IMG/VR virus record: IMGVR_UViG_3300019458_000001
Direction: 5' to 3' (one strand)
Origin: a virus
DNA: 64,000 nt
Under the pieces are notes generated by a model. That model saw nothing but the letters and a program-made list of their open reading frames with translations, had not been told where the DNA came from and ran no database searches. The translations under genes and the position numbers were made by a program. Shown piece after piece: positions 29,885 through 46,500 of the stretch; the first letter of the stretch is position 1, and each line of letters opens with the position of its first letter.

Positions 29885-30440
29885 CGACTACATCACCAAG
29901 TGCAAGGTCGAGGAGATCATCAAGGTCAAGGCCGACACGCTCTACAAGACGATCGACGCCGCGAAGAAGTTCAGGCTCGATCAGATCTCTTGCGATGCCT
30001 TTGACAACGACCCCGAACTCAAGAAGCTGAAGGGCGAGCTCGAGAAGCTCTCCGAGGAGAACCGGAAGCTCGCCGAGAAGCACAACAAGGAGAAGGCCGT
30101 CTTCGACGCCAAGCAGCGCGAGGAAACCGACAAGCAGAAGGCGAAGACAGACGAGATCAACCGGAAGATGCACGAACGAGTCCAGCTCATCAAGCAGAAG
30201 ATCTCGGCGGACATCTCCAAGACCGAGATGTCCGCGGCCGAGCTCCGGACCCGCGTCCAGGAGAAGATGACGAAGGCCCACGAGACGCTGTGGGTCGCCG
30301 GCGCGGGCCAGGAACTGAAGGACGTCCTGAGCCAGGTGCCGACGATCGACGAGCTCAGGAACGACGGCCTGCGCGCCCTCATCCCGGCGGACCAGATGCA
30401 GAAGCTCCTCTTGGGGATGGCCTCGCAGCCCCAGCGCTAA
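29874..30440 (+). CDS. coiled-coil protein (188 aa)
   Basis: Lys/Glu-rich, heptad-like sequence. Track ORF. Confidence 0.55.
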   Translation: MASNDYITKCKVEEIIKVKADTLYKTIDAAKKFRLDQISCDAFDNDPELKKLKGELEKLSEENRKLAEKHNKEKAVFDAKQREETDKQKAKTDEINRKMHERVQLIKQKISADISKTEMSAAELRTRVQEKMTKAHETLWVAGAGQELKDVLSQVPTIDELRNDGLRALIPADQMQKLLLGMASQPQR

Positions 30441-30904
30441 TGGACGCGGTTGCCGCGCAGCTCAGGATCCGGGACCTGACCCGGGACGGAATTCAACGCA
30501 AGGACCTCCCGGAACTGTTGAGTCTCGCCAAGAGGCTCTACCACGAATCCGCGATGGCGGATCTCATTGTGCCGCTGTTCGCCGCGCTCGCGAAGGCGCC
30601 GAACGTCGAGATCGACCCCGCCAAGAACGACGGGACGAACAAGGGCATCTACGAGAAGTACATCGTTCTCCGGTCGAACGGATCGAGCGGCCCCGGGGGG
30701 AAGCACGAGAAGTGCCGGTACTTCGTCCTGGACCTCATCCACGATGAGTTCTCAAGGCCGGCGATCGATGCGTACAAGGCCTCCTGTCGGGAGAAGTTCC
30801 CAGAGCTGGCCGACGATCTCGGGCACATCTTCTGCACCGGATCGCCGCACTTCGACGGGCACTCGCACCCTCCGGGCGAATCCCCGAGGGGACTTGTCAC
30901 GTAG
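30440..30904 (+). CDS. hypothetical protein (154 aa)
   Basis: ATG 30440 overlaps the upstream TAA by 1 nt (MDAVAAQL..). Confidence 0.55.
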   Translation: MDAVAAQLRIRDLTRDGIQRKDLPELLSLAKRLYHESAMADLIVPLFAALAKAPNVEIDPAKNDGTNKGIYEKYIVLRSNGSSGPGGKHEKCRYFVLDLIHDEFSRPAIDAYKASCREKFPELADDLGHIFCTGSPHFDGHSHPPGESPRGLVT

Positions 30905-30915
30905 TGAACGCGCGC

Positions 30916-30947
30916 GGGGAGGGACACTCGTGTCCCTCCCCTTTTTT
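30916..30947 (+). terminator. rho-independent terminator
   Basis: GGGGAGGGACA-CTCG-TGTCCCTCCCC (11-bp stem) followed by TTTTTT. Confidence 0.75.
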
Positions 30948-31426: not shown

Positions 31427-31693
31427 GTGCCCGAAACCAAGACCGACGTCCTCGATGAATTCATCATCAAGAACAAGGTGCCAGACGCAGGCACCGACCA
31501 GCCGAACCGGAAGCTCCTCGGCCTCTTCGTCGAGTTCCTGAAGGAGCGCGGCCAGTACGTAGAAAAAGGCGACCTCAAGAAGGAGCTCACGGAGAAGTTC
31601 TCGATCAAGGACCGGAACAAGGTTCCGATCGAGGTGACGAAGTGCCTGGTGTGCGGGCACCAGGAGTACGAAGTGAAGGAGTCCGAGGGCTAA
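31427..31693 (+). CDS. hypothetical protein (88 aa)
   Basis: Track ORF. CLVCGH motif. Confidence 0.5.
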   Translation: MPETKTDVLDEFIIKNKVPDAGTDQPNRKLLGLFVEFLKERGQYVEKGDLKKELTEKFSIKDRNKVPIEVTKCLVCGHQEYEVKESEG

Positions 31694-32067
31694 GCTCTCG
31701 CCAGCTCCTCTGCGTTCAGGACCTGCTTCCCGAGGGCGCGCTTGAGCTTCCGCATCGCGGTGTACTCGATCTGGGCGACCCGCGTTTTCGAGTAGCCGGT
31801 CCCGCGCGAGACGGCGTCCATCGAGAACGGCGGCTGCGAGACGAGCCCGCAGATCGCGTTGTGGAAGCTCTCGCCGTCCCCGTCCTCGCCCACCTTGATC
31901 TTGAATGGGCAGTCCGCGCACCGATTCCAGGACTTCTTGATCTCCATCGCCATCATCAGGTTCTTGAAGTCCTGCTTCTCCTCCATCGCCGAGAGAAGCG
32001 TCTCCGGGGACTTGAAGAACGGGCACTTCGCCTTCCCCGTGCACGGCGTGATGAGCTTGATCGTCAT
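31690..32067 (-). CDS. Cys-rich N-terminal domain fused to a sigma-70 region 4-like HTH (candidate RNAP specificity factor)
   Basis: ATG 32067 after GAGGAGG. N-terminus CTGKAKC..CADC. C-terminus FSMDAVSRGTGYSKTRVAQIEYTAMRKLKRAL aligns by eye with sigma70 region 4.2 (..TRERIRQIEAKALRKLR). Confidence 0.6.
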   Translation of the reverse strand: MTIKLITPCTGKAKCPFFKSPETLLSAMEEKQDFKNLMMAMEIKKSWNRCADCPFKIKVGEDGDGESFHNAICGLVSQPPFSMDAVSRGTGYSKTRVAQIEYTAMRKLKRALGKQVLNAEELARA

Positions 32068-32077
32068 GCGAACCTCC

Positions 32078-35000
32078 TCATGACGCAGCCGGAGCGGCGA
32101 CCGGTTCAGCGATCGTCGCCCCGTACGCGATTCCAGGGATCGGATTCCATCCTTTGACATCGCTCTTCCACCCCTCTGCCACGGCCTTCTGAAGCGTGTC
32201 CCGCAGGCGCCGGAACGAGAGCGCCGCCATCCAATCCTTCCGGCCCATCGGAACGACGTCCACACCCTTGAGAACGGGCCGGAAGCGGACCGGATTCGGA
32301 TTGGCGATGACGTTCGCCCGCCCCATCGCGCGAAGCCGCGAGATGTCGTCGTCCGTCAGGATCTTCTCGACGCCGCCGAGCTCGTCGATCTCCTCCATGA
32401 GCATCGCGTTTCTGGCCAGTTCGAGCGGAACCGGGGCGGCCTGTCTGCGGTTCTCCATGCGGACGACATTGAGCGGGACGACATCGCCTTCTACGAGGTC
32501 TGTCCTCGCCCCACTGTCGGTCACGAGCGCCGTGTCGGTCGCGGACCGGACCACCGTCTCGATGTGCTTCTTGCGGACGGCCCCCCGGAAGATGTCATAG
32601 ATCTGATCGACCATGTACCGGCGCGTGAAGTCGACGCCCTTGGTATCGAGGAGGTCTCGCGGATCGACCAGACCCTCCGACATCGGGTCGCCAGGATTCA
32701 CGACCTTGCCAGGCTTCACCGTCGGCTCGAACGGCGTGAAGTAGGCCTTCCCTGAGACCCGCACGTCGTAGCCGCCCGGCGCCTTCCCGACGCTCTCGAC
32801 GACGCCGTGTTCGGGCGCGACAAGCGCCTTCTGCTTCATGTCGTGCGGCATCTCGAGGAGCGTCTTCAACTTCTCGAAGCCCGTCATCTGGCCGGCGCCG
32901 CGCCCGGTGATGCCCTGGACGTGCTTCGACCCGAGGATAAGCTGGGTCATCGGCTCGCCAATCGCCTGCGCCGCGGTGATCCCGATGAAGGCTCCTGGCT
33001 TCGGAACGCGTCCGCGCTCGTCGAGCCCGTACGAAAGCGAGTACGTTCCGTAGGGGTGACTCGAAGTAAGCGGGCTTCCAAGTTCGACTGACTTCTTCCC
33101 TGCCGCCCGGAACCGCTCACGCATCTGCGCATCGAAGAGGTCGCCCCTCTTGGCGATCGCCCCGTAATCCCGCATCACGTACCGCCCGACCGACTCCCGG
33201 TCGTCGACCGAGAACTCGAGTCCCCGCTCGTCGTCCGGGGTCGCCCCAGGAACGATCCTGTTCTCGATCGACGTCTGCACCATGGACTTCGTGAGCGCTC
33301 CGGGTTCCGCCGTCGAGATCTTCGTCTCGACGCTTCCGCGCCTGGATCCGAGGACCGACACCCAGTAGTCGGCGGGCGTCATGCCTTGTGCGTAGCCCGT
33401 GCGTACTGGATGCGTGTGGATCCTTCCGCGGATGTCTTCCACCAGAACAGGCGCCGCGATCATCTGCGTCGCCTGAGCGATGTCGCCTCGGCCGCCCGAG
33501 GCGATCATCTGCCCGAGCGAACTCCCGCGCTCCCTCATCGTATTCTCGGACAGGCTCTTCAGCTCGTCGTACGCCTTCGAGTAAATTTCGACGATCTTCT
33601 GGTCCAGGCGCTTCTTGTCCGAGATGGACTTCACGGCCTCTGCCGCCTGTGCGTCGTACTTTTTCATCACGGCGGAGACCTCGCCCTTTGGCAGCTTGAG
33701 GTCGTCGAGACGAACCGAGAGGCCGGACAGATATGCGTACTCGTTCCCGATGTCCTTGAGCGCGTCCGCGACTGGCGCCAGAACCCTCGGGTTCTCGCGC
33801 GCCACGGACTCCAGAATCTTGGTCATCGCCCCTTTGTCGAGAATGAGATCCGGCCGGCGCAGCTTCTCCGGCAGCGCCCTGTTCACAAGAAGCCGGCCCA
33901 CGGTCGTCTCGGCTCCGGCAATTCGGATGAGATCTGTTTCCGTGATCTTCCCGTCGTAGAAGTCCTCGAGCGCTTCGAGGTCGGACGGATATGCCTTCCC
34001 TGTCTTCCTGCCCACGCTCGTGAGGCGGAAGAGCCCGACCTGGGACTCATGGCGCGGCGTAACGAGAATCTTCTCGGACGTCGACATCGGGTTCGCCGAC
34101 GGCATCATCTCGAAGGACTCCCGGACCGCCTCCGGGGTCACGGGGACGTGGACCCCGACCGTGTCCCCGTCGAAATCAGCGCCGAGCCCGACCGTGACGA
34201 GTTGGTTCAGGTGGATCGACTTCCCGGGGAAGAGCTTCGGCTTGAGGCCGATGATCCCGTGCTTGTGGAGGGTCGGCGCGCGATTCAGGATCACGGGCCT
34301 CTCGCTCATCGCCCGCGCCAGAGCGCCCCTGGCGTTCTCGGACCGCATCTTGATCAGCTCCTCAGCCTCGAGCGGAGGGACCCCCTGTTCGGCGAGTTTC
34401 TGGACGATGAACGGCTTGAAGACGATCCAGGCCATGTCCTCCGGGATCCCAACCTCGTCCATGCCAAGCGTCGGATTCCCGACGATCGCGGCGCGGCCTG
34501 AGAGTTCCTGCTGCTTCCGGAGAACGCGGGACTGGAAGTAGCTTCCCTTCGGGTGCTCGCCCGTCACGACATCGACGATGCCGCGGTAGTGCTCGGAGGA
34601 GATTGGGTCGCCAACGCCGGCCACCGCCTTCACCGCCTGGTAGAGATCGGCTCGCTGCTCGCGGAGCGACTCATCCGGGATCTGGCCCGACAGATCCTTG
34701 ATCTGGTTCTTGAGGGCCACGAGGTCGCGATAGAGATAGTTCACGTCGGAGACGTTCAGCGTTCCGTCCGGAAGCGGGTAGACGGGGCGGTAGATCGGGG
34801 GGAGAACCGGGATCTTGCTCACGAAGAGGTCTTCCGGGCGGATCGCGTTGTCCTTCATGTTGATCAGGAACCTGAGGGCCCGGTTGATCGCGTTGAGATC
34901 GCTTCCCTTCGAGCGCTTCGCCTGGTCCTTTAGGAGGCGGATCGCCCTCGGGACGTCCACCGACTCGAGCATCCGGCGTACCGCGGCGGGGCCCGTCATA

Positions 35001-38000
35001 CCGCCCTTTGAGGCGTCGAGCTTCTTCCCGAAAGCGTCGACGTGCGTCCGCTCCTCGACGATGTCGTCGTACTCCCGCTGGGAGAGGTCGAGCACGCCCC
35101 TGATCGCCGGCTCGAAGATCGGGTTCGGGACCTCGTACGGGAGGTCGATGTGCGTCCACTTCCGGCCGAGGAGTCCGCCCGTGAGCTTCTCGTCGAAGAG
35201 GCCGCCGTCCTCCGGCTTGAGATTCTTCCCAAGAAGCATCCTGGAGTTCGAGACCGCGCCTGCGCTCATCGCCTCTGTCTGGTCGTCCGTGAGGGGCTTG
35301 AGCTGGAACTGCGTCCCGCGTCGCTCGACGTTGATGCCGGCGCCCTTGAGGAGCGTCACGAACTTGTCGAAAGCGAACGTCGGCTGCGGCGGAGGGAGCG
35401 GCTCGTTCATCTGCAGGGCACGCCAGAACTCGTCGCTTTTCCCCGCCTTCACGGTCGCCATATCACGGATGTTGTGGAGCGCCCCGTGGGAAAGAAGCGC
35501 CGAGATCTCCATGTGCCCGATCGTCTGGGCGCCCTCGCCGGACTTCGCAGGCCGGAGATCCGCCGTGTAGGAGCCGCTCGGATCCCGTGCGTTGAACTTC
35601 TCCTTCGCGGCGTGCTCGAGCTTCATGATGAACTGGCGGCCCGTCGTGACCTTCCCGAGAGACCGTCCGCTCACGGGGTCGACCAATTCCTCGGCATCCT
35701 CGAGACCGTGCTTCTTCAGGTCCTGCTCGATCCTGTCCCTGAGGTCACCGGGCTCGAAGTTGTCCACGACGTAGGGCTTGCCCGTCTTCTTCGCGATCTT
35801 CCCGGCGAGCGCCTCGTAGATCTGAGACGGGTTCATGCGCGTGGGCAGTCCAAGGGGGTTGAGGAGGATCTCGACGGACTCCCCGTCCTTGGTGTGCGGC
35901 ATCTCGTGGTCTGGAATGATTCTCGTCACCAGACCCTTCGCGGCATATCGGCTGACCACCTTGTCCCCGACCTGAAGCGGCTCGGAGGTCTTCAGGAAGA
36001 TCTTCGCGCTCCCGTCCGGGAACTTCTGGACGTGCGTCACCTCTCCGTCGAACGGCTCCTCCCACACGAGCGCGGCGTCGGAGTATGGCCGGACGAGATT
36101 CCTGGAGATTTTCCCGAGGACGACATCCTCCGGCGTGATGTTCTTCTTGGAGAGATGCACCGATACGGGGTCGCCCGTCTTCAGCCTCTGCCCGCGCTGA
36201 ACGACGCCGTCCTCGTCGAGTTTTCCGAGCTGCGCCGCAGTAAAGCGGTTCGGAAGATACGCCGCGTACTTCTCCCGGCCAGCCAGCCCGTCCTTCGACG
36301 GACGATGGTCGATTTTGTACATGTGCTCGGAGGTCAGCTTCTTCGCCGCGCCCTCCGAGAGCACGATCCCGTCCTCGTAGTTCCATCCGCGCGCGGGGAG
36401 CCACGCAACTTTCAGGTTCTTTCCGATGGAGAGGACTCCGTCACGCGTGAAGTTCGAGTCGGCCAGGAGGTCGCCCTTCTTCACCCTGTCGCCCGCGGTC
36501 ACTTTCGGGACGCTGGTGACGAAGCTGCGGGCGTTGAGCGGAAAGTCCTTGTAGATCTGGACCGTGTGGACCTTGCCGTCATCCCCGCGGATCTCGACCG
36601 TCCTTTCCTTCACGCCCTCGACGATGCCGTCCACGGGCGACGTCACACCGGCCAGGTGCCCGAGGAGCTTCTCGAACGTCTTCTCCGGCAGCTTCTCGGG
36701 GGTGGCCGCGGACTGCACCAGCGGGGCCTCGGGCTCCCTGACGGCGACGGCCTGATCGTACATCTTCGCCGCCATGAGCCCGCGCCCGCCGTGCATGGCG
36801 TTGATGAACGGCACCAGGTTCGTCGAGAAGTCGAAGAGGTCACTCGCGCGTTCTACGACAAGATCGACCTCGGAAGGCCCGACGGTGCGGACCTTCCCGC
36901 GGTGCATGATGCGGATTGAGGCGTCCACGGGCACGAGCCTCCCCGAGGCGTCCTTGTGGTATTCGTTCGGGAACGCCACGCGCTTGTCGTAGATCTCGGG
37001 ATGAGCAAGCTCGATGCGCGTCTGGGCCTTCGGGTCGAAGAAGGGGACGAGGATCACCCCTTCCCCATTTTTTGCCCCAACGGAGACGTGCATGACCGCG
37101 CCGATGTCTCCGCCCTCCGGGGTGTGCATCGGGTCGATCGCCCCGAACATCGACGGATCAACGTCGCGATCCTCCTTCGTGACGGCGCGCTTGTTCCCGA
37201 TCGACCCCTCGCCGAAGACCGTGGTCTTCGTGAATCCCGTCACGAAGCTGATCGGATTCGACTGCGTTGGGTAGTTCGAGAGGGCCGACCGGTTGAAGAA
37301 GCTCGTCACGATGTCGGAGAGCTTGTCGGGCTGGACGATTTCCCGGACAGTCGACTTGTCGCGCATCCGCGCCTTGATCCGGTTCTGGATCGCGCGGGAG
37401 CTCTTCTCGATCCTTTCCGTCAGGATCTCGTCGAAGGTCCGGAACTCCTTGAAGCGGGAACTGTCGATGTCGGGCTCCTCGTCGCCGGACAGGACGCGTC
37501 CCATGTTCCTGAGCGCATCGACCACGAGACCCTTGTCGAAGGTCTTGTACTCCTTGCCGTACTTCTGCCGGACGACGTCGGAGGCCATAGGAAGCGCGCC
37601 GAGTATCTCGCGGACGCGCGCCGAATTCTCTCCAAGGTTCTGCGGGTTGGCCTTCTCGGAAGTCACGATCGTCCGGAGCTTCGCCGTATCGCGCTTCAGA
37701 TCGGCGTCGGCCTTGATCCGGTCGAGGCCGTCAAGGCCGATCGCGTCGACGATTTCGTCGTCCGAGACGTCCATCGCCTTCAGGTACGAGTAGAGCGGGA
37801 TGGTCTTGCCATCGAGCGAGACCGTCCAGCGGCGCTCCGCAGGCGCATAGTCGATGGAATGGTTCCACTTCGAGAACCCGATCGGCAGCTTGAAGTGGGC
37901 TGAGGTCTCCTCTGGGCGGCTCTTCACGTAGACGCCAGGCTTCAGGCGAAGCTGGTTGGCGACCTGGAATTCCTCGCCGCCGACGATGAACGAGAGCCTG

Positions 38001-38281
38001 GGCGTCAATTTCGGGATCTCCATGACGCGGAGCTTCTTCGCCCGGTCGATCTCCTTGCCTTGGGCGTCGATCAGGGAGATGTCCGCGTACACAGGAACAG
38101 CCCAGCTCCGCCCGTTGAGCTTGGCGTCGAGCTGGCTTCCGAGATCGTTCGGATCAAGCGCGTCTTCCGTCCAGACGCGGTTGACGTTCAGGACCTTCGG
38201 CCCAGAGACCGTGAGCGCGGAGGAGACCGTGCCGGACAGCCTCTCCTTCAGTTTTTCGTAGAGCTCGCCATGGTCGATCAT
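32078..38281 (-). CDS. single-polypeptide multisubunit-type RNA polymerase (RpoB-like N-terminal half fused to RpoC-like C-terminal half)
   Basis: Beta motifs: DVDPSMFGAIDPMHTPEGGDIG, NAMHGGRGLMAAKMYDQAV, GWNYEDGIVLSE, GDKVVSRYAAKGLV..LNPLGLPTRMNPSQ, IMKLEHAAKEKFNAR..GHMEISAL. Beta-prime motifs: IPVLPPIYRP, SDVNYLYRDL, LSGRAAIV, ILNRAPTLHKHGI, GADFDGD (34163-34180). One uninterrupted 2067-aa ORF. Confidence 0.9.
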   Translation of the reverse strand: MIDHGELYEKLKERLSGTVSSALTVSGPKVLNVNRVWTEDALDPNDLGSQLDAKLNGRSWAVPVYADISLIDAQGKEIDRAKKLRVMEIPKLTPRLSFIVGGEEFQVANQLRLKPGVYVKSRPEETSAHFKLPIGFSKWNHSIDYAPAERRWTVSLDGKTIPLYSYLKAMDVSDDEIVDAIGLDGLDRIKADADLKRDTAKLRTIVTSEKANPQNLGENSARVREILGALPMASDVVRQKYGKEYKTFDKGLVVDALRNMGRVLSGDEEPDIDSSRFKEFRTFDEILTERIEKSSRAIQNRIKARMRDKSTVREIVQPDKLSDIVTSFFNRSALSNYPTQSNPISFVTGFTKTTVFGEGSIGNKRAVTKEDRDVDPSMFGAIDPMHTPEGGDIGAVMHVSVGAKNGEGVILVPFFDPKAQTRIELAHPEIYDKRVAFPNEYHKDASGRLVPVDASIRIMHRGKVRTVGPSEVDLVVERASDLFDFSTNLVPFINAMHGGRGLMAAKMYDQAVAVREPEAPLVQSAATPEKLPEKTFEKLLGHLAGVTSPVDGIVEGVKERTVEIRGDDGKVHTVQIYKDFPLNARSFVTSVPKVTAGDRVKKGDLLADSNFTRDGVLSIGKNLKVAWLPARGWNYEDGIVLSEGAAKKLTSEHMYKIDHRPSKDGLAGREKYAAYLPNRFTAAQLGKLDEDGVVQRGQRLKTGDPVSVHLSKKNITPEDVVLGKISRNLVRPYSDAALVWEEPFDGEVTHVQKFPDGSAKIFLKTSEPLQVGDKVVSRYAAKGLVTRIIPDHEMPHTKDGESVEILLNPLGLPTRMNPSQIYEALAGKIAKKTGKPYVVDNFEPGDLRDRIEQDLKKHGLEDAEELVDPVSGRSLGKVTTGRQFIMKLEHAAKEKFNARDPSGSYTADLRPAKSGEGAQTIGHMEISALLSHGALHNIRDMATVKAGKSDEFWRALQMNEPLPPPQPTFAFDKFVTLLKGAGINVERRGTQFQLKPLTDDQTEAMSAGAVSNSRMLLGKNLKPEDGGLFDEKLTGGLLGRKWTHIDLPYEVPNPIFEPAIRGVLDLSQREYDDIVEERTHVDAFGKKLDASKGGMTGPAAVRRMLESVDVPRAIRLLKDQAKRSKGSDLNAINRALRFLINMKDNAIRPEDLFVSKIPVLPPIYRPVYPLPDGTLNVSDVNYLYRDLVALKNQIKDLSGQIPDESLREQRADLYQAVKAVAGVGDPISSEHYRGIVDVVTGEHPKGSYFQSRVLRKQQELSGRAAIVGNPTLGMDEVGIPEDMAWIVFKPFIVQKLAEQGVPPLEAEELIKMRSENARGALARAMSERPVILNRAPTLHKHGIIGLKPKLFPGKSIHLNQLVTVGLGADFDGDTVGVHVPVTPEAVRESFEMMPSANPMSTSEKILVTPRHESQVGLFRLTSVGRKTGKAYPSDLEALEDFYDGKITETDLIRIAGAETTVGRLLVNRALPEKLRRPDLILDKGAMTKILESVARENPRVLAPVADALKDIGNEYAYLSGLSVRLDDLKLPKGEVSAVMKKYDAQAAEAVKSISDKKRLDQKIVEIYSKAYDELKSLSENTMRERGSSLGQMIASGGRGDIAQATQMIAAPVLVEDIRGRIHTHPVRTGYAQGMTPADYWVSVLGSRRGSVETKISTAEPGALTKSMVQTSIENRIVPGATPDDERGLEFSVDDRESVGRYVMRDYGAIAKRGDLFDAQMRERFRAAGKKSVELGSPLTSSHPYGTYSLSYGLDERGRVPKPGAFIGITAAQAIGEPMTQLILGSKHVQGITGRGAGQMTGFEKLKTLLEMPHDMKQKALVAPEHGVVESVGKAPGGYDVRVSGKAYFTPFEPTVKPGKVVNPGDPMSEGLVDPRDLLDTKGVDFTRRYMVDQIYDIFRGAVRKKHIETVVRSATDTALVTDSGARTDLVEGDVVPLNVVRMENRRQAAPVPLELARNAMLMEEIDELGGVEKILTDDDISRLRAMGRANVIANPNPVRFRPVLKGVDVVPMGRKDWMAALSFRRLRDTLQKAVAEGWKSDVKGWNPIPGIAYGATIAEPVAAPAAS

Positions 38282-41004
38282 CGCACTGAGCTTGGGGTGG
38301 GGGCCTTGCCTGCGTTCCGGTTAGGCGGCTTCTGCTGCGGATTCGGCCTCGAATCGACGCCCTGCTGCTCCATCCACTTCGACATCACGATCGAGTGGAG
38401 CTGCGGGTTCTCGAGCTGAAGCCTCATGAGCGCCGAGTCCCGATCCGCGGGCTGCATCTGGGAAAGCGTCGCCATGAACTGGCCGGCCCATGCGTCCGGG
38501 TTTGACATCTGCTTGCCGTCGGTGCCGGGCTTGTTCGGCTCGTTCTTGAGCACCCCTCCGGGCGTCGACTGGCCTCCGCCGGGCTTCTGCTGGGCGAGCG
38601 AGTTCATCAGGGCCTGGGCCTCCGCGGGCGTGAAACCCATCGCGGTGTACTCGGTCATGATGTCGCGCTGCATCTTGGCCATCTCGACCTGGGCCTTGGC
38701 CTGGTACTTCGCCTGGATCATCATCGCCTCTCCCTCGGCCTCCGCCTGGGCCTTCATCTGGGCGACAGTGATCTTCGCGCGCTTGTCGACCTCGCCCTGG
38801 ATCTGCTCGAACTCCTTGGCCATCGAGTGGCCGAGCTCGCTGACGAACGTCTCGTCGGAGACCTTTCCGTTCATGTTCGCCTGCATGAGCAGGCTCTTCT
38901 GCTGGACATCGTCGACCCATTTGAGGCGGGTCATCGAAACGTCAACGGGCTTGAGCTTCGTGGCCTTCGAGACCTTGTCGATCACGAACCGCAGAAGCTG
39001 CTTGAGCCCGCGGATGTGGTTCAGGAAGAAGTTCTCGACCATCCGGAACGTGACGGAGGACCCGCTCCAGGACATCCCGCCCATGAGGAATTCGCGCGGG
39101 ACCTGGAGGCCGATGATCATCGTCTCCTGGAGGAACCGGATCTCGTCCATCATCGTCAGGGCGCGCGCGTCGCCGCCGATCTGCTGGAACCCTGTCGGGA
39201 TCGGGAAGACGGCGATGTGGTTCGGGTCCCGGCGCCACCGGCGGACCGCGTTCTCGATCTCCTGGCGCCACTTGGCGAGGTTCAGATGGCTTGCCGGGTC
39301 GAGATTCGCCTGCGGGAGCGGGTAGAGCATCCACATCGGGACGATGTGCTGTTGAGCGATGACCTCGCGGCTCTTGAGGAAGATCTGGTAGATGTAACGG
39401 CTCTTGAGCAGCGGGACGATGAGCGGGATCCCCCATCCGTTGTCGAAATAGCTCATCGACGGCCGCTTGATGTGGATGATGTTCGTCGGCTCGAGCTCGA
39501 CGCGGGCGCCCTCCTTCGCGGCCATGATGAAGCTCATCGGCGTCTCTTCGAGGACGCGCCGGCGCCCCGCCCAGATCTGGCGTTTGAGCTGGTTTGGAAG
39601 GTTGTAGTAGTAGGTCGAGTTCCCAGAAATCGGATTGTGTTCGATGTCGATCTGCGCCGGGTCCCATCGGATGATGTTCATGCCCGCGGTGGTCTTCGTC
39701 ATCGGCTTGTCGACGACGACCATCGGGAGGGGCTCGTCCGGAGCGCACGTCGCGCACTTCATGTAGAACTTGAAATCCTTGGGGTTGAACTGGAACTTCG
39801 AGCTCTTGATGGGCTTCTGCTTACGACAGTGCGGACAGACAAGCATCCGGATGAACGGAACGTAGAAGCTGCCTATGTAGTTCCCGTAGCAGTTTCCGGT
39901 AAGGACGCCGTTTTCGATGACGAACGTGTGCGTCTGTTCCTCGACGCAACAGAAGGCTTCGTCAACGATGCCCGTCTCGCGGACATCGACAACGCGAACC
40001 TTCTGCCCGTAGTTCGTCTCCTTGAAGTGCTCCTCGAACCGCTCGCGGTGATGATCGAGGAGGAAGTCTTCAGGCCTTAGATATTGCCTATAGAGCGACA
40101 GGAAGCACTGAGAAGACCCCGACACGTAAGACGAACGTCCGGAGGGATGCTCGCGAACAACACCAGCGATCATGCCGATGCGTGGAAGCTGGACTTCGAT
40201 CGCCCTGAGCGTCGCTTCGGATTTTTGGGTCAGGACGGCATATCCGGCAACGTCAACGCTTCCGTCGGCAGCCAGGAATCCGCAGACGAACCCGTACCAG
40301 TAGCTCGCGCTGCGTTCGTTTTCCGGCAGATTCTTGTAATGCGGCGGCAGGCCGTGCTGGTAGATGACGCCAAGCCTGGCTTCGTACGGCTTCGACCCGA
40401 CGCCCTCGAAGTATTTCAGCATCCCCTTGTCTTTGGCGCCGCAGAAGATCGCCCTGGCCTGCTTGCCATCGTTATATAGCGTGCCATCACCGAACACGAA
40501 GCCGTGGCGAACGCCTTCGTAGAACTCGTCGTTCTGTTCTGGGCGCGCAGCGACGCTCCTGAGAAGCGTGAGGCCAGCGATGTCTTCCGTCGGCCTCTTG
40601 ACGACATTCCCGCTCGACGTGATGATCGGCCATATATGATCCTTGGTGGCGAGAATGGTTCGGCCGTCGCTCAGCTCCACCTCCATGAACTCCTGGCGAC
40701 CATAACACTTGAACGTGGCCGGGCGGTAGACGCCATCCTGGGAGAGAACTTCGACGGTCTTCCCGGACAGGTCCCGAAGCCTGAAGACACCGTTCTTGGT
40801 AACCGCCCGCACATCGCCATGCAGGCAGTTGTAGTCTAGGCCGGCCTCCTCGAGCTTCGTCCGGATCGCCAGATCCTCCTCGAGGACCTTCTTCCAGCGA
40901 GACTTCAGGTCGTCGTCCTTGTCCTCGTAAACAAGGTCTGTGATGGGAAACTGGGCCAGCTTGTAAAGCGTCGCGGAGATGATCTCGTCCGAGAACGCGT
41001 ACAT
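38278..41004 (-). CDS. portal-like protein interrupted by an intein
   Basis: 908-aa ORF, or 596 aa after intein removal. Gln/Ala/Lys/Glu-rich C-terminal helix typical of portal barrels. Located in the structural block. ATGA-coupled to the RNAP gene. The portal assignment is by resemblance only. Confidence 0.55.
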   Translation of the reverse strand: MYAFSDEIISATLYKLAQFPITDLVYEDKDDDLKSRWKKVLEEDLAIRTKLEEAGLDYNCLHGDVRAVTKNGVFRLRDLSGKTVEVLSQDGVYRPATFKCYGRQEFMEVELSDGRTILATKDHIWPIITSSGNVVKRPTEDIAGLTLLRSVAARPEQNDEFYEGVRHGFVFGDGTLYNDGKQARAIFCGAKDKGMLKYFEGVGSKPYEARLGVIYQHGLPPHYKNLPENERSASYWYGFVCGFLAADGSVDVAGYAVLTQKSEATLRAIEVQLPRIGMIAGVVREHPSGRSSYVSGSSQCFLSLYRQYLRPEDFLLDHHRERFEEHFKETNYGQKVRVVDVRETGIVDEAFCCVEEQTHTFVIENGVLTGNCYGNYIGSFYVPFIRMLVCPHCRKQKPIKSSKFQFNPKDFKFYMKCATCAPDEPLPMVVVDKPMTKTTAGMNIIRWDPAQIDIEHNPISGNSTYYYNLPNQLKRQIWAGRRRVLEETPMSFIMAAKEGARVELEPTNIIHIKRPSMSYFDNGWGIPLIVPLLKSRYIYQIFLKSREVIAQQHIVPMWMLYPLPQANLDPASHLNLAKWRQEIENAVRRWRRDPNHIAVFPIPTGFQQIGGDARALTMMDEIRFLQETMIIGLQVPREFLMGGMSWSGSSVTFRMVENFFLNHIRGLKQLLRFVIDKVSKATKLKPVDVSMTRLKWVDDVQQKSLLMQANMNGKVSDETFVSELGHSMAKEFEQIQGEVDKRAKITVAQMKAQAEAEGEAMMIQAKYQAKAQVEMAKMQRDIMTEYTAMGFTPAEAQALMNSLAQQKPGGGQSTPGGVLKNEPNKPGTDGKQMSNPDAWAGQFMATLSQMQPADRDSALMRLQLENPQLHSIVMSKWMEQQGVDSRPNPQQKPPNRNAGKAPTPSSVR
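39892..40827 (-). mobile_element. intein with LAGLIDADG homing-endonuclease domain (312 aa) in the portal-like gene
   Basis: Block A CLHGDVRAV (Cys at residue 60). Block B TKDH. LAGLIDADG motifs GFVFGDGT and GFLAADGSV. C-terminal ..THTFVIENGVLTGN followed by the +1 Cys (residue 372). Confidence 0.8.
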
Positions 41005-41084
41005 CTGGCAGTACTTGAAGAGATCCTTGATCCTCGGCGGGAGGAAGAGAGATGCCAGATCGAAGAACGGTTATCTCTTGCCGC

Positions 41085-41114
41085 GCAGCCCTCTCTCGTT
41101 AAAGAGAGGGCTGC
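41085..41114. other. perfect 12-bp stem / 6-nt loop hairpin between the HNH gene and the portal-like gene
   Basis: GCAGCCCTCTCT-CGTTAA-AGAGAGGGCTGC. No U-tract on either strand. Confidence 0.5.
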
Positions 41115-41247
41115 GTACTCGGCGATGGATAGCGCAGCCCGACCTTGAAGCCGGTATCAGCGGCTCGCGGATCAGCAAGTGAGTCAGCCACAGGCTAATC
41201 CTCGCGGTCGAGCTGGCTGTCCATCGCTTGGCTTGACCTCGTCTTCT

Positions 41248-42078
41248 TCATGCGATGTACACCCGCCCGTTGACGATCCGCCAGATCGTGGATTGCGTTA
41301 CGCCGTACTTCCTCGCGAGCTCATTCTGACTGGCGTTCCCAGATGAGTAGCGACGTCGGATGCCGGCGACTTGCCTGAGTGTGAACTTCGCTTTAGGGTT
41401 CTCCTCGCCGCGCAAGCTGCGGCCAGTAAACTGGATAAAAGTCGAACGGCCTTTCGCGATCATATCATTCGTATTGTCGCGCATCGTCCCGAGTTTCAGG
41501 TGACTCGGACGCACACACGCCGGAGCGTCGCACATGTGCAGAATGCACATCCCGTTCGGAATCTCGCCGGATGTAAGCGCGAACGCGACGCGGTGGGCGA
41601 GCAGCAACTTTCTCTTCGGCATACGCACCGTGAACTGCCCGTAGCCAACGTTGTTCTTAGCTCCGGACCAAAGCCAACAACCGTCGCCCTTAACAACCTT
41701 CGCCCAAAACCTATAGCTCCAGTCTGCTGACGCCGCAATCCGGTGTCCAGATGTGCGCCATGTTGTTTTTGCTGGCGGCGATTTCTTCTGGTCAGACCAC
41801 CAGTGCTTGAGATTGTCTGACTGCGTTCCTAGGAAAAGATGTTCTCGCCGAACGCATGATTTGTTGCCGCAGCGATGGAGAACATTCAGGTTCGGCGGAA
41901 TGCTTCCACGGAATAGCATCCAGGAGGCTCTATGCGCGCCGATCAATCGTCCCTTCATGGAGAAGGAGCCGTATCCGCCGCCTTGCTTGGCTCCAATCCA
42001 CAGCCAGCATCCGTCGGTCTTCTGGACGTGTGACCAGAATCGCTTGATGTGTTTGTCGTCAGCAAGCGAGTCGGCCAT
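41248..42078 (-). CDS. free-standing HNH homing endonuclease with two tandem HNH_3-type modules and a C-terminal HTH
   Basis: Two copies of CWLW.GA...GYG....AHR....G.IP....H.C....C..P.HL..GT...N. C-terminus LRQVAGIRRRY..NELARKYGVTQSTIWRIVNGR. ATG 42078 after GAGGGGAA. Confidence 0.8.
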   Translation of the reverse strand: MADSLADDKHIKRFWSHVQKTDGCWLWIGAKQGGGYGSFSMKGRLIGAHRASWMLFRGSIPPNLNVLHRCGNKSCVRREHLFLGTQSDNLKHWWSDQKKSPPAKTTWRTSGHRIAASADWSYRFWAKVVKGDGCWLWSGAKNNVGYGQFTVRMPKRKLLLAHRVAFALTSGEIPNGMCILHMCDAPACVRPSHLKLGTMRDNTNDMIAKGRSTFIQFTGRSLRGEENPKAKFTLRQVAGIRRRYSSGNASQNELARKYGVTQSTIWRIVNGRVYIA

Positions 42079-42160
42079 CGTTCCCCTCAACCGGATAGAG
42101 TTCGACCGTGGACGCTACGAGGGTGGTTTCCGCCCTCTCCGACGGTCCGACCTGTCTTAC

Positions 42161-42670
42161 TTACTGCTTCGAGCTCCTGTTGAGCAGGAGCCACCGGCCC
42201 TTCCCGAGGTTACTGCCAGTAACGATAGTATATCGCTCCCCCGCTTCGGTTGAGAAGTCTATTTTGCCCTCGGTCGCCTGCAGGATTTTTACCTTCCTGC
42301 GGTCTGCGATGTCGACATCCCCGGCCCCGTATCCCTGTTCAATCTTTCCGGACCAGTCCATGTATGGGATGCTGTGGGTGCTCTGGATGACCGCGAGCCG
42401 CTTCTCGCCCGGCATGGGCCAGTTCCTGAGCGCCCAGGAATGCGCGTGGCCGGTATGCGGGTCCCCGATCCTCAGATCGAAGTGACGGCCCGCTTTCTTC
42501 GCCCTGTGGTCGTGGACGGCGAACTCCCAATCCTCAGGACGCGCGATCCTGCGAATGGGGTGAATGAGCCCCTTCTTCGGGATGCCGATGATCTCCTCGC
42601 CCTTCGGCGCGTAGGACGCCCCGGAAACGGGGTGCTCCTCGCAGAGCTTGAGGAGATCGTCCAGACCCAC
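42161..42670 (-). CDS. LigD 3-prime-phosphoesterase (PE) domain-like protein
   Basis: FAVHDHRAKKAGRHFDLRI..HSWALRNWPMPGEKRLAVIQSTHSIPYMDWSGKIEQGYGAGDVDI matches the LigD_N/PE signature (H.H.A...H.DLRLE..SWAVPKG..RLA..V.DHP..Y..FEG.I..G.YGAG.V). Confidence 0.75.
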   Translation of the reverse strand: MGLDDLLKLCEEHPVSGASYAPKGEEIIGIPKKGLIHPIRRIARPEDWEFAVHDHRAKKAGRHFDLRIGDPHTGHAHSWALRNWPMPGEKRLAVIQSTHSIPYMDWSGKIEQGYGAGDVDIADRRKVKILQATEGKIDFSTEAGERYTIVTGSNLGKGRWLLLNRSSKQ

Positions 42671-42678
42671 GGGCCCTC

Positions 42679-42855
42679 CTATCGCACTGGGCCCGCCGGC
42701 TGCCTGAGGCTCACCGTTCCCTTGAGGGGGACCGCGTGTCGGATCCCGCGGACGACCTTCGCAGCCTCCGAAGCCGGGCTCAGCGCCTTCTTGAGAAGCG
42801 GACTCGACGCCGACTTCCCCAGCTCGAAGATGAGGCCCTGGAAGAACTTACGCAC
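42679..42855 (-). CDS. small hypothetical ORF (58 aa), absent from the track
   Basis: GTG 42855 lies 6 nt after GGAGG. VRKFFQGLIFELGKSASSPLLKKALSPASEAAKVV.. fills an otherwise 177-nt gap. Confidence 0.3.
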   Translation of the reverse strand: MRKFFQGLIFELGKSASSPLLKKALSPASEAAKVVRGIRHAVPLKGTVSLRQPAGPVR

Positions 42856-43249
42856 TCCCGGCCTCCGCGGTCTCCTTCTCCGGCGCGGGCTCCCCGTTCC
42901 CGTTCTTCTTGGCTTCCTCGGGCTTCTTCTCGTCGTCCTTCTCCAGCTTCGCCGGCTTCACCGGAATCTGGCGCGTGATGAGAAGCGTGCCGTCGTCGTT
43001 GAGCTGGAGCGCCTCGCCGCGCTTGATCCCGAGCTCCTTGAAGAAGACGTTCGCGTCCGCCTCGTGGATCTGCTTCTTCAGGTTGACGATCTCCTCCTTC
43101 ATGGCGCCCACCTGCTGGATCGTCCCGGCGAGCTCACGTTCGAGCTGGATGATCCGGTCGTTCAGATGGACATTGAGGAGGCGGTACTTCTGCGCGTCGG
43201 TGAGCTTCTTCTCCTCGACCTTGACCTGCGGCTTTTTGGCGTCGGCCAT
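42848..43249 (-). CDS. coiled-coil protein (133 aa; scaffold-like, function unknown)
   Basis: Track ORF. Heptad-rich with a Lys/Glu tail. Confidence 0.55.
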   Translation of the reverse strand: MADAKKPQVKVEEKKLTDAQKYRLLNVHLNDRIIQLERELAGTIQQVGAMKEEIVNLKKQIHEADANVFFKELGIKRGEALQLNDDGTLLITRQIPVKPAKLEKDDEKKPEEAKKNGNGEPAPEKETAEAGSA

Positions 43250-43264
43250 GAATGACTCTCCTGT

Positions 43265-43570
43265 CTATTTGGATTCCTGGCGCTTCTTCATAGCATACGC
43301 GCCGAGAGCCGCTCCGCCAAGTCCCGCAAGCAGAAGATGCTTGCCCTTCAGGCCGCCGCCCGCAGGCGGCGCGGGCGGCGCGGGCCGGTGGGTCCCCGGG
43401 ACGCCGAGGCGCCTTGCGAGCGCCACGCCCCCCATCCCAAGAGCCGCGCCTCCGGCGGCTACCGATCCCGCCACGACTGGATCGGACATGAGCTGGAGCG
43501 CCTCGCCGGCGATCCCCTCCTTCTTGAGCTCGAAGAAGAGGCCGCTCCAGAACGGGTGCAGTTCGATCAT
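43265..43570 (-). CDS. small Gly/Ala-rich membrane protein
   Basis: Two hydrophobic Gly/Ala-rich segments. ATGA-type overlap with the upstream gene. Confidence 0.5.
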   Translation of the reverse strand: MIELHPFWSGLFFELKKEGIAGEALQLMSDPVVAGSVAAGGAALGMGGVALARRLGVPGTHRPAPPAPPAGGGLKGKHLLLAGLGGAALGAYAMKKRQESK

Positions 43571-46500
43571 GCGATGAGCGTGCCGGGTTCAGGCTGGAAG
43601 ATCGCCTCCACGAACGGGTTCGTCACGGTCACGTAGGCCGACGCGTCCTTGATGATGCCGACCTTCTTGATGACGCTTCCGGAAGACGTCGGGGCGGTCG
43701 TGGTCGCGCGGCCGGGCGTGGCGTCCGACAGGAAGATCTCGTCGTTTGCCGCCGGCGAGAGGCCGTTGACGAGCCTTGCATTCTCGATGAGCCCGCCGAA
43801 CCCGGTGGTGATGAGGCCGGATGACCCCGATCCGATGGCCATCTCGGCGTTTCCGAATACCCGCGCCGCCGCTTCGGACGTGGCGATCGCCATCTGGCAG
43901 TTGTCGTTCGAGGTGACTCGCACGAACGTTCCGGAGTCAATCGCGGCGGAAGCCGTGAAAGTCACGCTCCCGGCGTTTGTCGCCGCAGAGTCGAGCTGCT
44001 CGATCGCGTCCTGGACGTTCGTTGCGGTGACGACCAGAAGGCCAGTCGGATCGAAGCCCACCGCTTCCGCGCCGGACGAGCTCGCCGTGCTCGCGTTCAG
44101 GTTGACCGTCTCGTCGTCGGCGACGTTCCTGAGCCAGATCTCGCTCCATCCGATGCTGGACGTACCGAGGGTCGTCGTGTCGTTGGTGGCCGCCCGGAGC
44201 ACGCTGCTCTGGATGATGACGGGCGGATTGCCGACGGCGTTTCCGAGGTTGACCGCACCGATGTTGATGCCTGAGTTCACGCCAATGTTGATCGCCGCGA
44301 CTCCCGGCACAAAACTTGCCCCGATGTCCAGGGTCAGGTCCCCTGCCGCGCTTGCCGTGCTTGCTCCCGTCGTGACGGTGACGGCTCCGCCTCTTCCGCC
44401 GCCAGCGACCGTCTGTGCGCCGCCCGTGATGACCGCGGCACCGCCGACGGCGCCAACCGAGGCGAAACTTGAAGCCCCGCCGGTCAGGTTCATGGCGCCT
44501 GCGGTTCCGGTTGGGGACGCTCCGCCGATGACGGACATCGCGACACCCGCTCCCGCCACCACCGCATTCGGGCGGATCGTCTTGAGCGCCGCGTTCGCCG
44601 CGAAGGCGATCGTGTCGCCCGTAAGCGCGAACGTCGATGCGGCGGCACCCACCGTGACTGTAGCGGCGGCGCCACCGAGGTTGATGGCTGTGATCGTGGT
44701 GTTGAAGATGCTCCCGGTTCCAGCGCTCGTGCTGGAGATCGACGGGCTGGCCCCGTTCAGGTTGAGGGCCGTGGCGTTCGTGGCGGTGATGGTTACGTTT
44801 CCGATGGTGAGTGTACCCGTGCTCGCGCCCACGTTGAGCGAGGTCGCGGCGCCGCCGACGTTGAGCGTGGTGACTGTGGTGTTGAAAACGTTTGCCGTCG
44901 TCGACGTTGTGCCGATCGACGGGCTCGCGCCATTGAGGTTGAGTGCCGTCGCGCCGCTGCCCGTGATCGTCGGATTCGCGATCGTAAACGTACCGGTCGC
45001 CGCGCCCACGTTGAAACTCGTGGCCGCTGCTCCCATGTTCAGGGTCGTGACGGTCGAGTTGAAGACGCTCGCCGTCGTGGAAGTCGTCGCGATGGATGGG
45101 CTGGCGCCGTTCAAGTTCAGGGCCGTGGCGTTCGTGGCGGTGATGGTGGCGTTGCCGATCGTAAGCGTGCCCGTTGAGGCGCCCATGCTAAGCGACGTCG
45201 CCGCCCCGCCGAGATTGAGCGTCGTGACGGTCGCGTTCAGCAGGTTGAACGTAGTCGCGGTGGACGTCAGATCGCCGCCGTTGATCGCGGCGTCCCCCGT
45301 GATCGTGACGTTGCCGGCGCTGTTGATCCGGAAGATGTCCGCCGCCGCGCTGTCGATGATCTCGAGGTAGTCGCCGGTCTGGGCCGCGGCGCCGACGAGC
45401 CGCAGGACGTCGTGCGCCGCGGTCGTTCCCGTGACTCGCTCCTTGGCGTCTGTGACACCGGTGTTTCCGATGTCCACACGATCGGTCGATGTCGTGAGAC
45501 GAACCACGGTTCCGTCGTCCGTCCAGCCGCCGGCCGCGGCGCTCGTCGCAAGGGAAACCCAGGCCGTTCCGGTGTACGTGTCGACGGTGTCCGTTGTGGT
45601 GTTCCACACAACCATGCCGTCCGATGTTCCCGTGACGTCGAGGGCGTCCCGCTCTGCCGTGGTCATGAGCGGGAAGGCGAAGGCGATCGACGTGTCCACC
45701 CCGACCTGGGTGGCGTCGACGTCGCTCCGGCGGAAGAAGTTCGGCGTCCCGCCGTAACGGATCGAACTCGACGTCGAGCTGAAGTTCAGGTTCAGGCTCG
45801 TGAAGGTGACCGTCGTCAGGCTGCTCGCCGAGAACGCCACGTCGGTCGAGGATCCGCCGACCGCGGCGGAGAACGTTTTGTCAGTGCTGGTGTTCCGTCC
45901 GAAGATCGAGAGCGTGTTCGTGTAGGACGCGGTCACGTTCGCCGTGTTGCCCACAGTCACGGTGCTGTTGACGTCCGTGTCCGTGCCGTCGGTCTCGTAG
46001 AAGAACAGCGACGCGGCCGTCACCTTGGCGACGCCGCGCCTCACGGTTGTCGCCCCCGCTCCGCCAACCACAAGAGTGCCTGTCGATGGCGTGCCGGCGG
46101 TGGCGTTCGAGTTGACGTTCAGACGGTCGCTCGTGAAGCTGGACGCCGAGTCAGACCCGCTTTGCGTGAACGTCCCCGTGACGGTCGTGGCCCCGTTCAG
46201 GCTGACCGCGCCCGTGCCGGTCGAGAAGGTGCTCGAGCCGGACTGGGTGAAGCTCCCGCTAACGGTCGTGAGGCCCGTGCCCGTCGTGAATGTGTTTGAG
46301 CCCGAGATCGTCGTGTTGCCGTTCAGGGTGACCGTACCGGTGCCCGTCGAGAACGTCGTCGATCCCGTCTGGGAGAAATTCGATCCCGTAGTGACACCGC
46401 TCGACCCTGTAAGGGTTAGCGCGCCGGCGCTCGCCACAACCGAGATGGTCGTGGATCCCGTGATCGTGTTCGTGGTGCCGTTCACGGTGATCGTTGATCC

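Follow-up and report, generated by a model that had tools for sequence, protein, structure and literature searches.

The DNA analysed here (the window) comprises positions 1-64000 of a 181,021 bp metagenomic contig (ENA ERZ27251176 k141_208565; 62 % G+C), recorded as viral in IMG/VR under IMGVR_UViG_3300019458_000001. It contains an open reading frame (ORF) for a protein of 2067 amino acids (aa), in which complete beta and beta' modules of an RNA polymerase follow one another with no linker in between, making a phage-encoded polymerase of bacterial type in one polypeptide. The polymerase gene and its immediate neighbours are listed in Table 1. Only one gene comes after it in a co-oriented morphogenesis block on the minus strand that extends over at least 42 kb and converges on a replication block (helicase, nuclease, primase and RusA) on the plus strand. 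An earlier reading of the sequence, referred to here as the original prediction, had described one uninterrupted beta/beta' ORF of this length, and all of the motifs quoted in it were found in the order in which they were given. It did not mention the lack of cysteine, the partner gene downstream, the intein of the portal protein or the existence of a large family with cultured members, all of which are described below. The G+C content and the G+C content at third codon positions (GC3) of the polymerase gene match those of the surrounding genes, and its GC3 of 0.87 is as found in the real genes of the window.

Table 1. Coordinates of the polymerase gene, of elements within it and of the adjoining genes
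Feature	Position	Strand	Basis
Fused beta-beta' RNA polymerase, cysteine-free, 2067 aa	32078..38281	-	ATG to TGA, uninterrupted; stop codon 32078-80
Beta module, residues 1-989	35315..38281	-	phmmer against PDB, AlphaFold2, Foldseek
Beta' module, residues 990-2067	32081..35314	-	phmmer against PDB, AlphaFold2, Foldseek
Direct join of beta C-terminus to beta' N-terminus, residues 967-1010, no linker	35252..35383	-	Alignment, model
Equivalent of rifampicin-binding cluster I, strongly diverged	37199..37288	-	Alignment
Flap-tip-like helix 'TPEDVVLGKISRNL', docking site of sigma region 4 in bacteria	36095..36136	-	Aligns with bacterial 'TPEEKLLRAIFGDKA'
GDKVVSRYAAKG, beta double-psi beta-barrel, active-site lysines	35933..35968	-	D773, K774 and K782 invariant in 50-sequence alignment
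Deleted beta' N-terminal Cys4 zinc ribbon, 'GGLLGRKW'	35156..35179	-	Family alignment, gap of ~32 residues
Beta' clamp helices, helical hairpin at residues ~1178-1220, docking site of sigma region 2 in bacteria	34622..34750	-	Alignment, model
Catalytic GADFDGD, residues 1367-1373, beta' double-psi beta-barrel	34163..34183	-	Alignment
Region of second beta' zinc site with four Cys replaced, 'PGATPDDERG' ... 'SPLTSSHPYGTYSLSYG'	33026..33250	-	Alignment
Polymerase TGA running into GAGGAGG Shine-Dalgarno, 5 nt before the ATG of the 125 aa ORF	32068..32080	-	Sequence
125 aa Cys4 protein with helix-turn-helix resembling sigma region 4.2	31690..32067	-	22 homologues
Portal protein, 908 aa, with intein of ~310 aa (residues ~60-371)	38278..41004	-	Homology to Arash gp204

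Profile searches and structural comparisons had been proposed with the original prediction. The profile searches found Pfam domains of both subunits, with Rpb2_3 and Rpb2_6 (E=9e-47) lying within residues 340-900 and Rpb1_1, Rpb1_2 (E=2e-24), Rpb1_4 and Rpb1_5 within residues 1137-1818. When the PDB was searched using phmmer, residues 53-991 aligned with residues 68-1062 of a cyanobacterial beta of 1104 aa, and residues 1066-1949 with residues 167-1106 of a beta' of 1188 aa. AlphaFold2 models were made for residues 1-1100 (predicted local distance difference test, pLDDT, 87.7; predicted template modelling score, pTM, 0.76) and for residues 960-2067 (pLDDT 86.5, pTM 0.76). In Foldseek searches of the PDB, the beta model matched full-length beta of cyanobacteria, Thermus and Mycobacterium with template modelling (TM) scores of 0.72/0.75 over approximately 1087 columns, and the beta' model matched beta' of Bacillus, Staphylococcus, Clostridium and E. 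coli with a query-normalised TM score of approximately 0.8. Overall, full-length bacterial folds, including the lobes, flap, clamp, bridge helix and trigger loop, were matched with TM scores of 0.72-0.82 over approximately 1090-1240 columns. Bacterial chains fill the top 50 PDB matches of each half-model, and phiKZ and AR9 chains are not among these. When predicted viral structures were searched, the best matches were separate beta' proteins of other phages (TM 0.74, 19 % identity).

The polymerase is a full bacterial-type beta plus beta' minus the lineage-specific insertions and the zinc sites. Its size is 0.75 of that of E. coli beta and beta' combined (2067/2749), in agreement with the earlier estimate of about three quarters. 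However, the description as minimal that went with this estimate is correct only relative to E. coli, because both modules are complete when compared with the smallest bacterial beta and beta'.

The two modules meet between residues 989 and 990 (approximately nucleotides 35314/35315). The sequence 'PTFAFDKFVTLLKGAGINVERRG' corresponds to the extreme C-terminus of bacterial beta, and 'TQFQLKPLTDDQTEAMSAGAV...NLKPEDGGLFDEKLTGG', which comes next, aligns with residues 17-54 of Bacillus subtilis beta' (residues 999-1036 of the polymerase). The join is conserved across the family of phage polymerases described below, is predicted to be ordered (pLDDT 77-95 in the AlphaFold2 models) and sits where both termini lie adjacent in bacterial enzymes. 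The original prediction was right in describing the junction as direct, but the span assigned to it, 35160-35310, is really that from the join to the site of the zinc-ribbon deletion.

The three Asp of the GADFDGD motif are invariant in an alignment of 61 sequences. This motif was also recognized originally, but the coordinates recorded for it (34163-34180) cover only ADFDGD. The bridge helix and the trigger loop are retained, the latter in a diverged form ('QLILGSKHVQG' vs 'QLTMRTFHTGG'). Together with the active-site residues of beta listed in Table 1, these elements suggest that the protein is active as a polymerase. The sigma-docking elements, namely the beta' clamp helices and the beta flap-tip-like helix, also look retained, as judged from the alignments and models. 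In the AlphaFold2 model, the flap-tip-like element is a helix at residues 717-725. In the clamp helices, 'SDVNYLYRDL' aligns with bacterial 'SDLNDLYRRV', and two helices were modelled at residues 220-238 and 244-262 of the fragment. The positions equivalent to E. coli D516, H526 and S531, the main rifampicin-resistance positions, are occupied by T, G and T in the phage polymerase, from which insensitivity to rifampicin can reasonably be inferred.

Zinc sites and cysteine content

Bacterial beta' has an N-terminal Cys4 zinc ribbon that is cleanly deleted in the phage polymerase, as originally predicted. Between 'LFDEKLTGG' and 'THIDLPYEVPNPIF', the six residues 'LLGRKW' stand in for approximately 32 that carry the CxC...CxxC of bacteria, and alignment of the family revealed that the deletion is common to every member aligned. 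The second beta' zinc site is found as DC.T ... C-x6-C-x2-C in most family members and in bacteria, and is absent from the subclade that includes the polymerase from the window. All four of the positions equivalent to E. coli C814, C888, C895 and C898 are substituted. With both beta' sites gone, the polymerase would contain no zinc.

There are no cysteines in the 2067 residues of the polymerase, and the relatives that share 68-81 % identity with it are likewise cysteine-free. The other 74 proteins predicted in the window contain 1.23 % Cys, and at this level the probability that none would be found in 2067 residues by chance is approximately 8e-12. Using the level for the morphogenesis block (0.63 %), it is approximately 2e-6. 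Most other family members contain exactly four Cys, which are those of the second beta' zinc site. The closest of the polymerases that have kept the four Cys, P0017, is 50 % identical to the polymerase from the window and is nearer to it than is a second cysteine-free clade (approximately 33 %). This relationship indicates that the second zinc site has been lost independently in the two clades, and hence at least twice in the family.

We note that there is a threefold difference in Cys content between the replication block (2.0 %; 8-32 kb, plus strand) and the morphogenesis block (0.63 %; 32-64 kb, minus strand). Putative virion proteins of 1701 and 874 aa include only one Cys each.

Distribution and origin of the polymerase family

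Full-length fused proteins of 2000-2170 aa, encoded on contigs of up to 205 kb, made up more than 60 of the clusters recovered in a protein search. Homologues with 100 % coverage and 68-81 % identity come from independent metagenome assemblies. In IMG/VR, at least 156 relatives were found on contigs of up to 210 kb, many of them 166-193 kb, and the family, most of which is uncultured, is widespread in environmental phages. For 80 of these IMG/VR loci, the form of the polymerase and its linkage to the portal gene were recorded. Beta and beta' are in a single stop-free ORF in approximately 60 of the 80, and approximately 15 have a two-gene form, in which one gene encodes beta and the N-terminal part of beta' (approximately 1450 aa) and the other the C-terminal part of beta' (approximately 600 aa). 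The two-gene form is also found in the cultured members of the family, Salmonella phage Arash (OQ632216; gp206, 1525 aa, and gp216, 606 aa) and Vibrio phages D69, D148 and D181. The polymerase from the window includes the family signature, which consists of the beta-beta' fusion, the motif 'GGLFD...TGG..G..W.HI.L.E..PNP.FE' and linkage to a portal gene.

The enzymes of Arash, D69, D148 and D181 share 32 % identity with the polymerase over residues 52-1459 and 26.5 % over residues 1460-2048. They resemble it in the fusion of the beta C-terminus to the beta' N-terminus, in the position of the portal gene just upstream, in the absence of the ribbon and in the genome size of approximately 180 kb. 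However, each consists of two polypeptides, the break falling after the position that corresponds to residue ~1460, and the 0.6-4.8 kb that separate the two genes contain small ORFs or homing endonucleases. They also differ in that they keep the four-Cys second zinc site, the catalytic motif is DYDGD, an ORF of approximately 95 aa lies between the portal and polymerase genes, and canonical sigma genes are present. At BLAST level, these phages share almost no other gene with the window.

Some polymerases of the family, among them P0013, P0019, P0022, P0026, P0037 and P0071, contain from one to three inteins, and the proteins are up to 3258-3596 aa long. The inteins lie exactly in catalytic motifs, namely after DFDGD (~1373), near DPxHTPEG (~390), in GDK (~776) and in the trigger loop (~1783). 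An origin of the Arash-type split at an intein site was considered and rejected, as the split is at ~1460 and the inteins are at ~390, 428, 638, 776, 844, 1373 and 1783. P0074 and P0075, found on contigs of 224-353 kb, represent a separate lineage of fused polymerases of 2277-2283 aa, with 16 Cys, the zinc ribbon and all of the bacterial Pfam domains.

The order of the modules, beta then beta', is that of bacterial operons and of the rpoBC genes of Helicobacter and Wolbachia, and one marine homologue is labelled KEGG K13797. Both would be expected if the ORF were a host rpoB-rpoC that reached the contig by misassembly or a recent horizontal transfer. However, bacterial beta and beta' genes are at best 25-30 % identical to the polymerase (approximately 27 %), and a close relative was not found among 185,579 representative genomes (GTDB). 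The flanking genes (portal, HNH endonuclease and tail-fibre-like) are those of a phage, the same gene and synteny recur in independent metagenomes and in cultured phages, and the base composition is that of the surrounding genes. Misassembly and host capture are therefore excluded to the point of near certainty, and the polymerase is a genuine phage gene, as had been proposed.

In having both double-psi beta-barrels, the flap, the clamp helices, the bridge helix and the trigger loop, the polymerase is like bacterial core enzyme. It is built like the Helicobacter-type rpoBC fusions (KEGG K13797), with beta and then beta' in one ORF joined at their natural termini, but is not a cellular orthologue. 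It is distinguished from the bacterial core and from rpoBC by the identity of only approximately 27 %, by the absence of both beta' zinc sites, of Cys and of the lineage-specific insertions, by the diverged rifampicin pocket and by its location in a phage morphogenesis block. In addition, genes for alpha or omega (RNA_pol_A_bac, RNA_pol_L, Rpb6) were not found nearby when the 64 kb window and 10 kb beyond it were searched using Pfam and hmmscan, which confirms and extends what had been reported for the window.

Phages phiKZ and AR9 also encode beta/beta' homologues, and their cores function without alpha or omega (PMC7598289). However, the phiKZ and AR9 enzymes are made up of four or five polypeptides, are present as two paralogous sets, are far more diverged and lack sigma homologues. 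The complete genome of Arash includes a single polymerase set. The query-normalised TM score for a phiKZ-like beta' fragment was 0.26, and in tblastn searches the E value was approximately 1e-17 compared to approximately 1e-69 for bacterial genes. Membership of the phiKZ/AR9 clade was rejected on both the sequence and the fold ranking. The polymerase is also like N4 gp50, crAss-like gp66 and the tape-measure-fused polymerase of P23-45 in that it is a giant single chain encoded among late or structural genes, and those enzymes are packaged and ejected. N4 gp50 is, in addition, completely cysteine-free. However, N4 gp50 has a T7-like single-subunit fold, and in the extremely diverged two-barrel enzymes of crAss and P23-45 the full beta/beta' architecture is not recognisable. 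The polymerase resembles the virion polymerases of phiKZ and N4 in its inferred role and is a member of neither family.

A description of a family of fused beta-beta' phage polymerases was not found in the literature searched. In the Arash paper, gp206 is labelled 'beta subunit' and the fusion is unremarked (PMC10585845). Sequences of the family are already in public databases, and one phage that encodes such an enzyme has been characterised. What appears to be new is the complete fusion, the absence of the ribbon throughout the family, the loss of the second zinc site on more than one occasion, the lack of any cysteine and, as described below, a partner resembling sigma region 4.

Probable virion carriage, promoter specificity and alternative roles

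The explanation that we consider best is that the polymerase is a phage-owned single-chain core that is packaged in the virion, ejected, and given its specificity by factors acting in trans, and we assign this a probability of approximately 0.6. Packaging and ejection, considered separately, are on balance probable.

The gene preceding that for the polymerase was originally called portal-like, and its identity as a portal gene is now confirmed by a match of residues 374-832 to the Arash portal, gp204 (phmmer, E=1e-64); the match to Portal_T4 is weak. The stop codon of the portal gene and the start codon of the polymerase gene overlap in the ATGA at 38278-38281, as first reported, and a separate Shine-Dalgarno sequence for the polymerase is not present, which implies that the polymerase is translationally coupled to the portal gene. 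The genes upstream on the same strand include those for an HNH endonuclease, a virion-structural-like protein of 1701 aa, a tail-fibre-like protein of 874 aa and, just outside the window, Baseplate_J, and this supports the placement of the polymerase inside a virion gene block by the original prediction. In approximately 60 of the 80 relatives, a portal homologue is located no more than 10 kb upstream of the polymerase gene, and the two directly adjoin in the closest ones. In distant relatives, they are several kb apart or unlinked. The penultimate position in the late block and the coupling to the portal gene suggest that the enzyme is made late, packaged and ejected.

The polymerase has been detected in virions for one member of the family, Arash. 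Gp206 yielded the most spectra in mass spectrometry of the Arash virion (3516, compared to 1333 for the major capsid protein), and there were 1210 for Gp216 and 467 for the sigma factor Gp10 (PMC10585845). A further parallel is the virion polymerase of N4, gp50, which includes no Cys in 3500 residues; the co-ejected gp51 and gp52 are also without Cys. In the N4 record (EF056009), where these three proteins are at 34523-47523, the major coat protein and gp57 also lack Cys.

In phiKZ and AR9, one polymerase set is packaged, ejected and reads the early genes. The enzyme encoded in the window would be made late, packaged in the capsid and ejected with the DNA, and would then transcribe the early genes independently of the host polymerase. 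When a transcription enzyme is produced alongside the portal as the late block ends, it is mainly the next infection that can benefit from it. As Arash has a single polymerase set, the same core probably also transcribes later genes. A chain free of zinc and Cys could unfold, pass through the tail and refold without complications from metal binding or redox chemistry. The covalent tether probably takes the place of the alpha dimer as the platform for assembly, and tethered E. coli beta-beta' was reportedly functional (work of Severinov in 1997).

Specificity would probably be provided in trans. Arash encodes two sigma70-family factors (gp10 and gp196) and D69 at least one, and factors of this type may be encoded in the 117 kb of the contig outside the window. 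Another candidate is the 125 aa protein encoded directly downstream of the polymerase gene (Table 1). L010 and L012, two close relatives, also have this gene after that for the polymerase, and it occurs in this subclade only. The 22 homologues are 52-100 % identical, with C9, C15, C53 and C73 invariant, and the helix-turn-helix 'PPFSMDAVSRGTGYSKTRVAQIEYTAxRKxKR' is also invariant. It resembles sigma70 region 4.2 ('S-K-T-R-V-A-Q-I-E-x-x-A-x-R-K-L' vs 'S-R-E-R-V-R-Q-I-E-x-x-A-L-R-K-L') and, as a small phage-encoded protein, it is like the 'minimal' phage sigma factors with a single helix-turn-helix and T4 gp33. However, sigma70 regions 2 and 3 are absent, and the N-terminal part contains the four invariant Cys. 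Region 2 was not found using Pfam, and the N-terminal 75 residues form a Cys4 module without a family match. Identity as a WhiB-like protein was rejected, as the Cys spacing is different and Pfam Whib was not matched. We tentatively regard the 125 aa protein as a candidate accessory or specificity factor of the polymerase. The enzyme was originally described as self-contained, and this description is unproven. The cultured relatives Arash and D69 encode sigma70-family factors, one of which was found in Arash virions, the sigma-docking elements look retained, and the gene immediately downstream of that for the polymerase encodes a protein resembling sigma region 4.

Several observations weigh against the explanation that we favour. 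The virion polymerase of phiKZ is not cysteine-free (0.61 % Cys in the virion set vs 1.16 % in the non-virion set), and absence of Cys is therefore no general rule for packaged polymerases. A rule that cysteine-free means ejected was upheld only in part, as N4 fits it and phiKZ is cysteine-poor. The list of Arash virion proteins runs to 116 and includes ribonucleotide reductases, and the authors allow for carry-over of abundant proteins from the infected cell (PMC10585845). For the 125 aa protein, Pfam Sigma70_r4 was matched below threshold in 5 of the 22 homologues (best E=0.027), isolated sigma-4 domains, aligned over this same helix-turn-helix stretch, make up five of the six PDB profile matches but with E values of approximately 1, and the hhalign probability of 81.5 % for the match of this family to sigma-4 was obtained with a small hand-made sigma-4 alignment. 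A canonical sigma factor was not found in the 64 kb window or 10 kb beyond it (Pfam, hmmscan and phmmer with Arash gp10 and gp196). Finally, a shared promoter motif was not found in the few intergenic regions using k-mers with one mismatch, compared with shuffled sequences; only the ribosome-binding site was above the null, and a scan for the sigma70 consensus was at chance level.

The possible carry-over in Arash and the distance between the portal and polymerase genes in distant relatives would both fit an enzyme that is not carried in the virion, and that transcribes middle or late genes in the infected cell after the host polymerase has read the early genes, with the portal adjacency being incidental. 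The fact that phage sigma factors usually redirect the host polymerase is in keeping with this. However, if the enzyme were produced solely alongside the portal, in the last part of the late block, it would come too late to be of use unless it was packaged. Furthermore, the Arash homologue is at the top of the virion spectra, above the major capsid protein, Arash has only one polymerase set, and the cysteine-free composition matches that of the ejected N4 polymerase and the Cys-poor structural block. We consider a purely intracellular role to be unlikely, though it is the most credible of the alternatives. Less likely still is that the protein replaces only the large subunits, forming a hybrid that needs host alpha2, omega and/or sigma and is not self-contained. 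Such a hybrid would be in keeping with the bacterial-type folds, which are complete in both modules and nearest to those of cellular enzymes, with the retention of the sigma-docking elements and with the failure to find genes for alpha, omega or a canonical sigma in the window. However, at approximately 27 % identity to bacterial enzymes it is doubtful that the interfaces with alpha and omega are conserved, and relatives carry their own sigma factors. Neither alpha nor omega is needed by the phiKZ and AR9 cores (PMC7598289). Covalent fusion, as in the tethered E. coli beta-beta', is also a known bypass for assembly.

It is very improbable that the protein is a catalytically dead derivative with a structural or ejection function. 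The high abundance in Arash virions, the loss of both zinc sites and the divergence of the trigger loop could be read in this way, but all members of the family have kept the bridge helix and the catalytic residues (Asp triad and beta lysines), in part without variation, and the confident models show that the fold is preserved throughout. In addition, inteins in the relatives interrupt exactly the catalytic motifs, and insertion at such points is typical of active sites that are essential. Returning to the packaged and ejected core, its most complete form, a zinc- and Cys-free single chain that is independent of alpha and omega, is threaded unfolded through the tail, refolds in the host, is programmed by a minimal zinc-finger factor with only sigma region 4 or by phage sigma factors, and transcribes independently of the host, is speculative and as a whole unlikely.

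The family occupies a position between the phiKZ and AR9 enzymes, which are fragmented and without sigma factors, and those of N4, crAss and P23-45, which are packaged single chains but not of bacterial type. If the explanation that we favour is correct, it would represent a third strategy for host-independent transcription, distinct from the phiKZ and N4 types. In reviews, jumbo phages with their own polymerase are described as lacking sigma factors, and those with sigma factors as lacking a polymerase (PMC7598289, PMC7824862). The cultured members of the family have both, which contradicts this rule. A natural polymerase of multisubunit type that lacks zinc and Cys tests the purpose of zinc sites that are universally conserved, and the fused chain offers a test of a covalent tether as a substitute for the alpha platform. 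The enzyme may also be of use as an orthogonal expression tool, as it is encoded by a single gene, sigma-programmable and probably insensitive to rifampicin. Cultured members, Arash (Salmonella) and D69 (Vibrio), are at hand.

Neighbouring genes and other features of the window

The insert in the portal protein gave weak Pfam matches to Intein_splicing (E=5e-4) and LAGLIDADG_3 (E=1e-3) and ends with '...GN', followed by C. The portal orthologue of L010 (658 aa) is without the intein. Fusion of the small ORF gp205 of Arash to the C-terminus of the portal protein in the window was considered, and no similarity was found. In the 243 nt gap before the portal gene, there is a hairpin with a 12 bp stem (GCAGCCCTCTCT...AGAGAGGGCTGC), and the gene upstream of this (41248-42078, minus strand) encodes an HNH homing endonuclease with a C-terminal helix-turn-helix (PHROG, E=1e-55).

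Further along the minus strand, the gene for the 1701 aa protein (43567-48672) has an unusually high G+C content at second codon positions (0.60). Only residues ~64-153 of this protein match PHROGs ('virion structural protein' and 'short tail fiber'), and the rest is without a match. The morphogenesis block also includes genes for stand-alone LigD_N (3'-phosphoesterase; 42161-42670, minus strand) and LigD primase-polymerase (51703-52470, minus strand) proteins, which are end-joining repair modules and are conserved in L010. A gene at 56582-57415 (minus strand) in the structural block encodes a patatin-like phospholipase, possibly a lipase associated with the virion.

Two tRNA genes, both also detected by Rfam, are located on the plus strand. 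The one at 23902-23975 has the anticodon CUA and is amber-suppressor-like, and for the other, at 24962-25041, ARAGORN reads an odd four-base anticodon loop. The CUA anticodon raised the possibility of TAG recoding, which is not supported, as TAG ends 19 of the 75 genes in the window and no long ORF is interrupted when the standard code is used. A terminator-like hairpin at 30916-30941 (plus strand) follows the gene at 30440-30904, and is made up of an 11 bp stem with eight G-C pairs and then TTTTTT. Where the two blocks converge, the last plus-strand and minus-strand genes overlap by 4 nt (31690-31693), leaving no space for a terminator between them.

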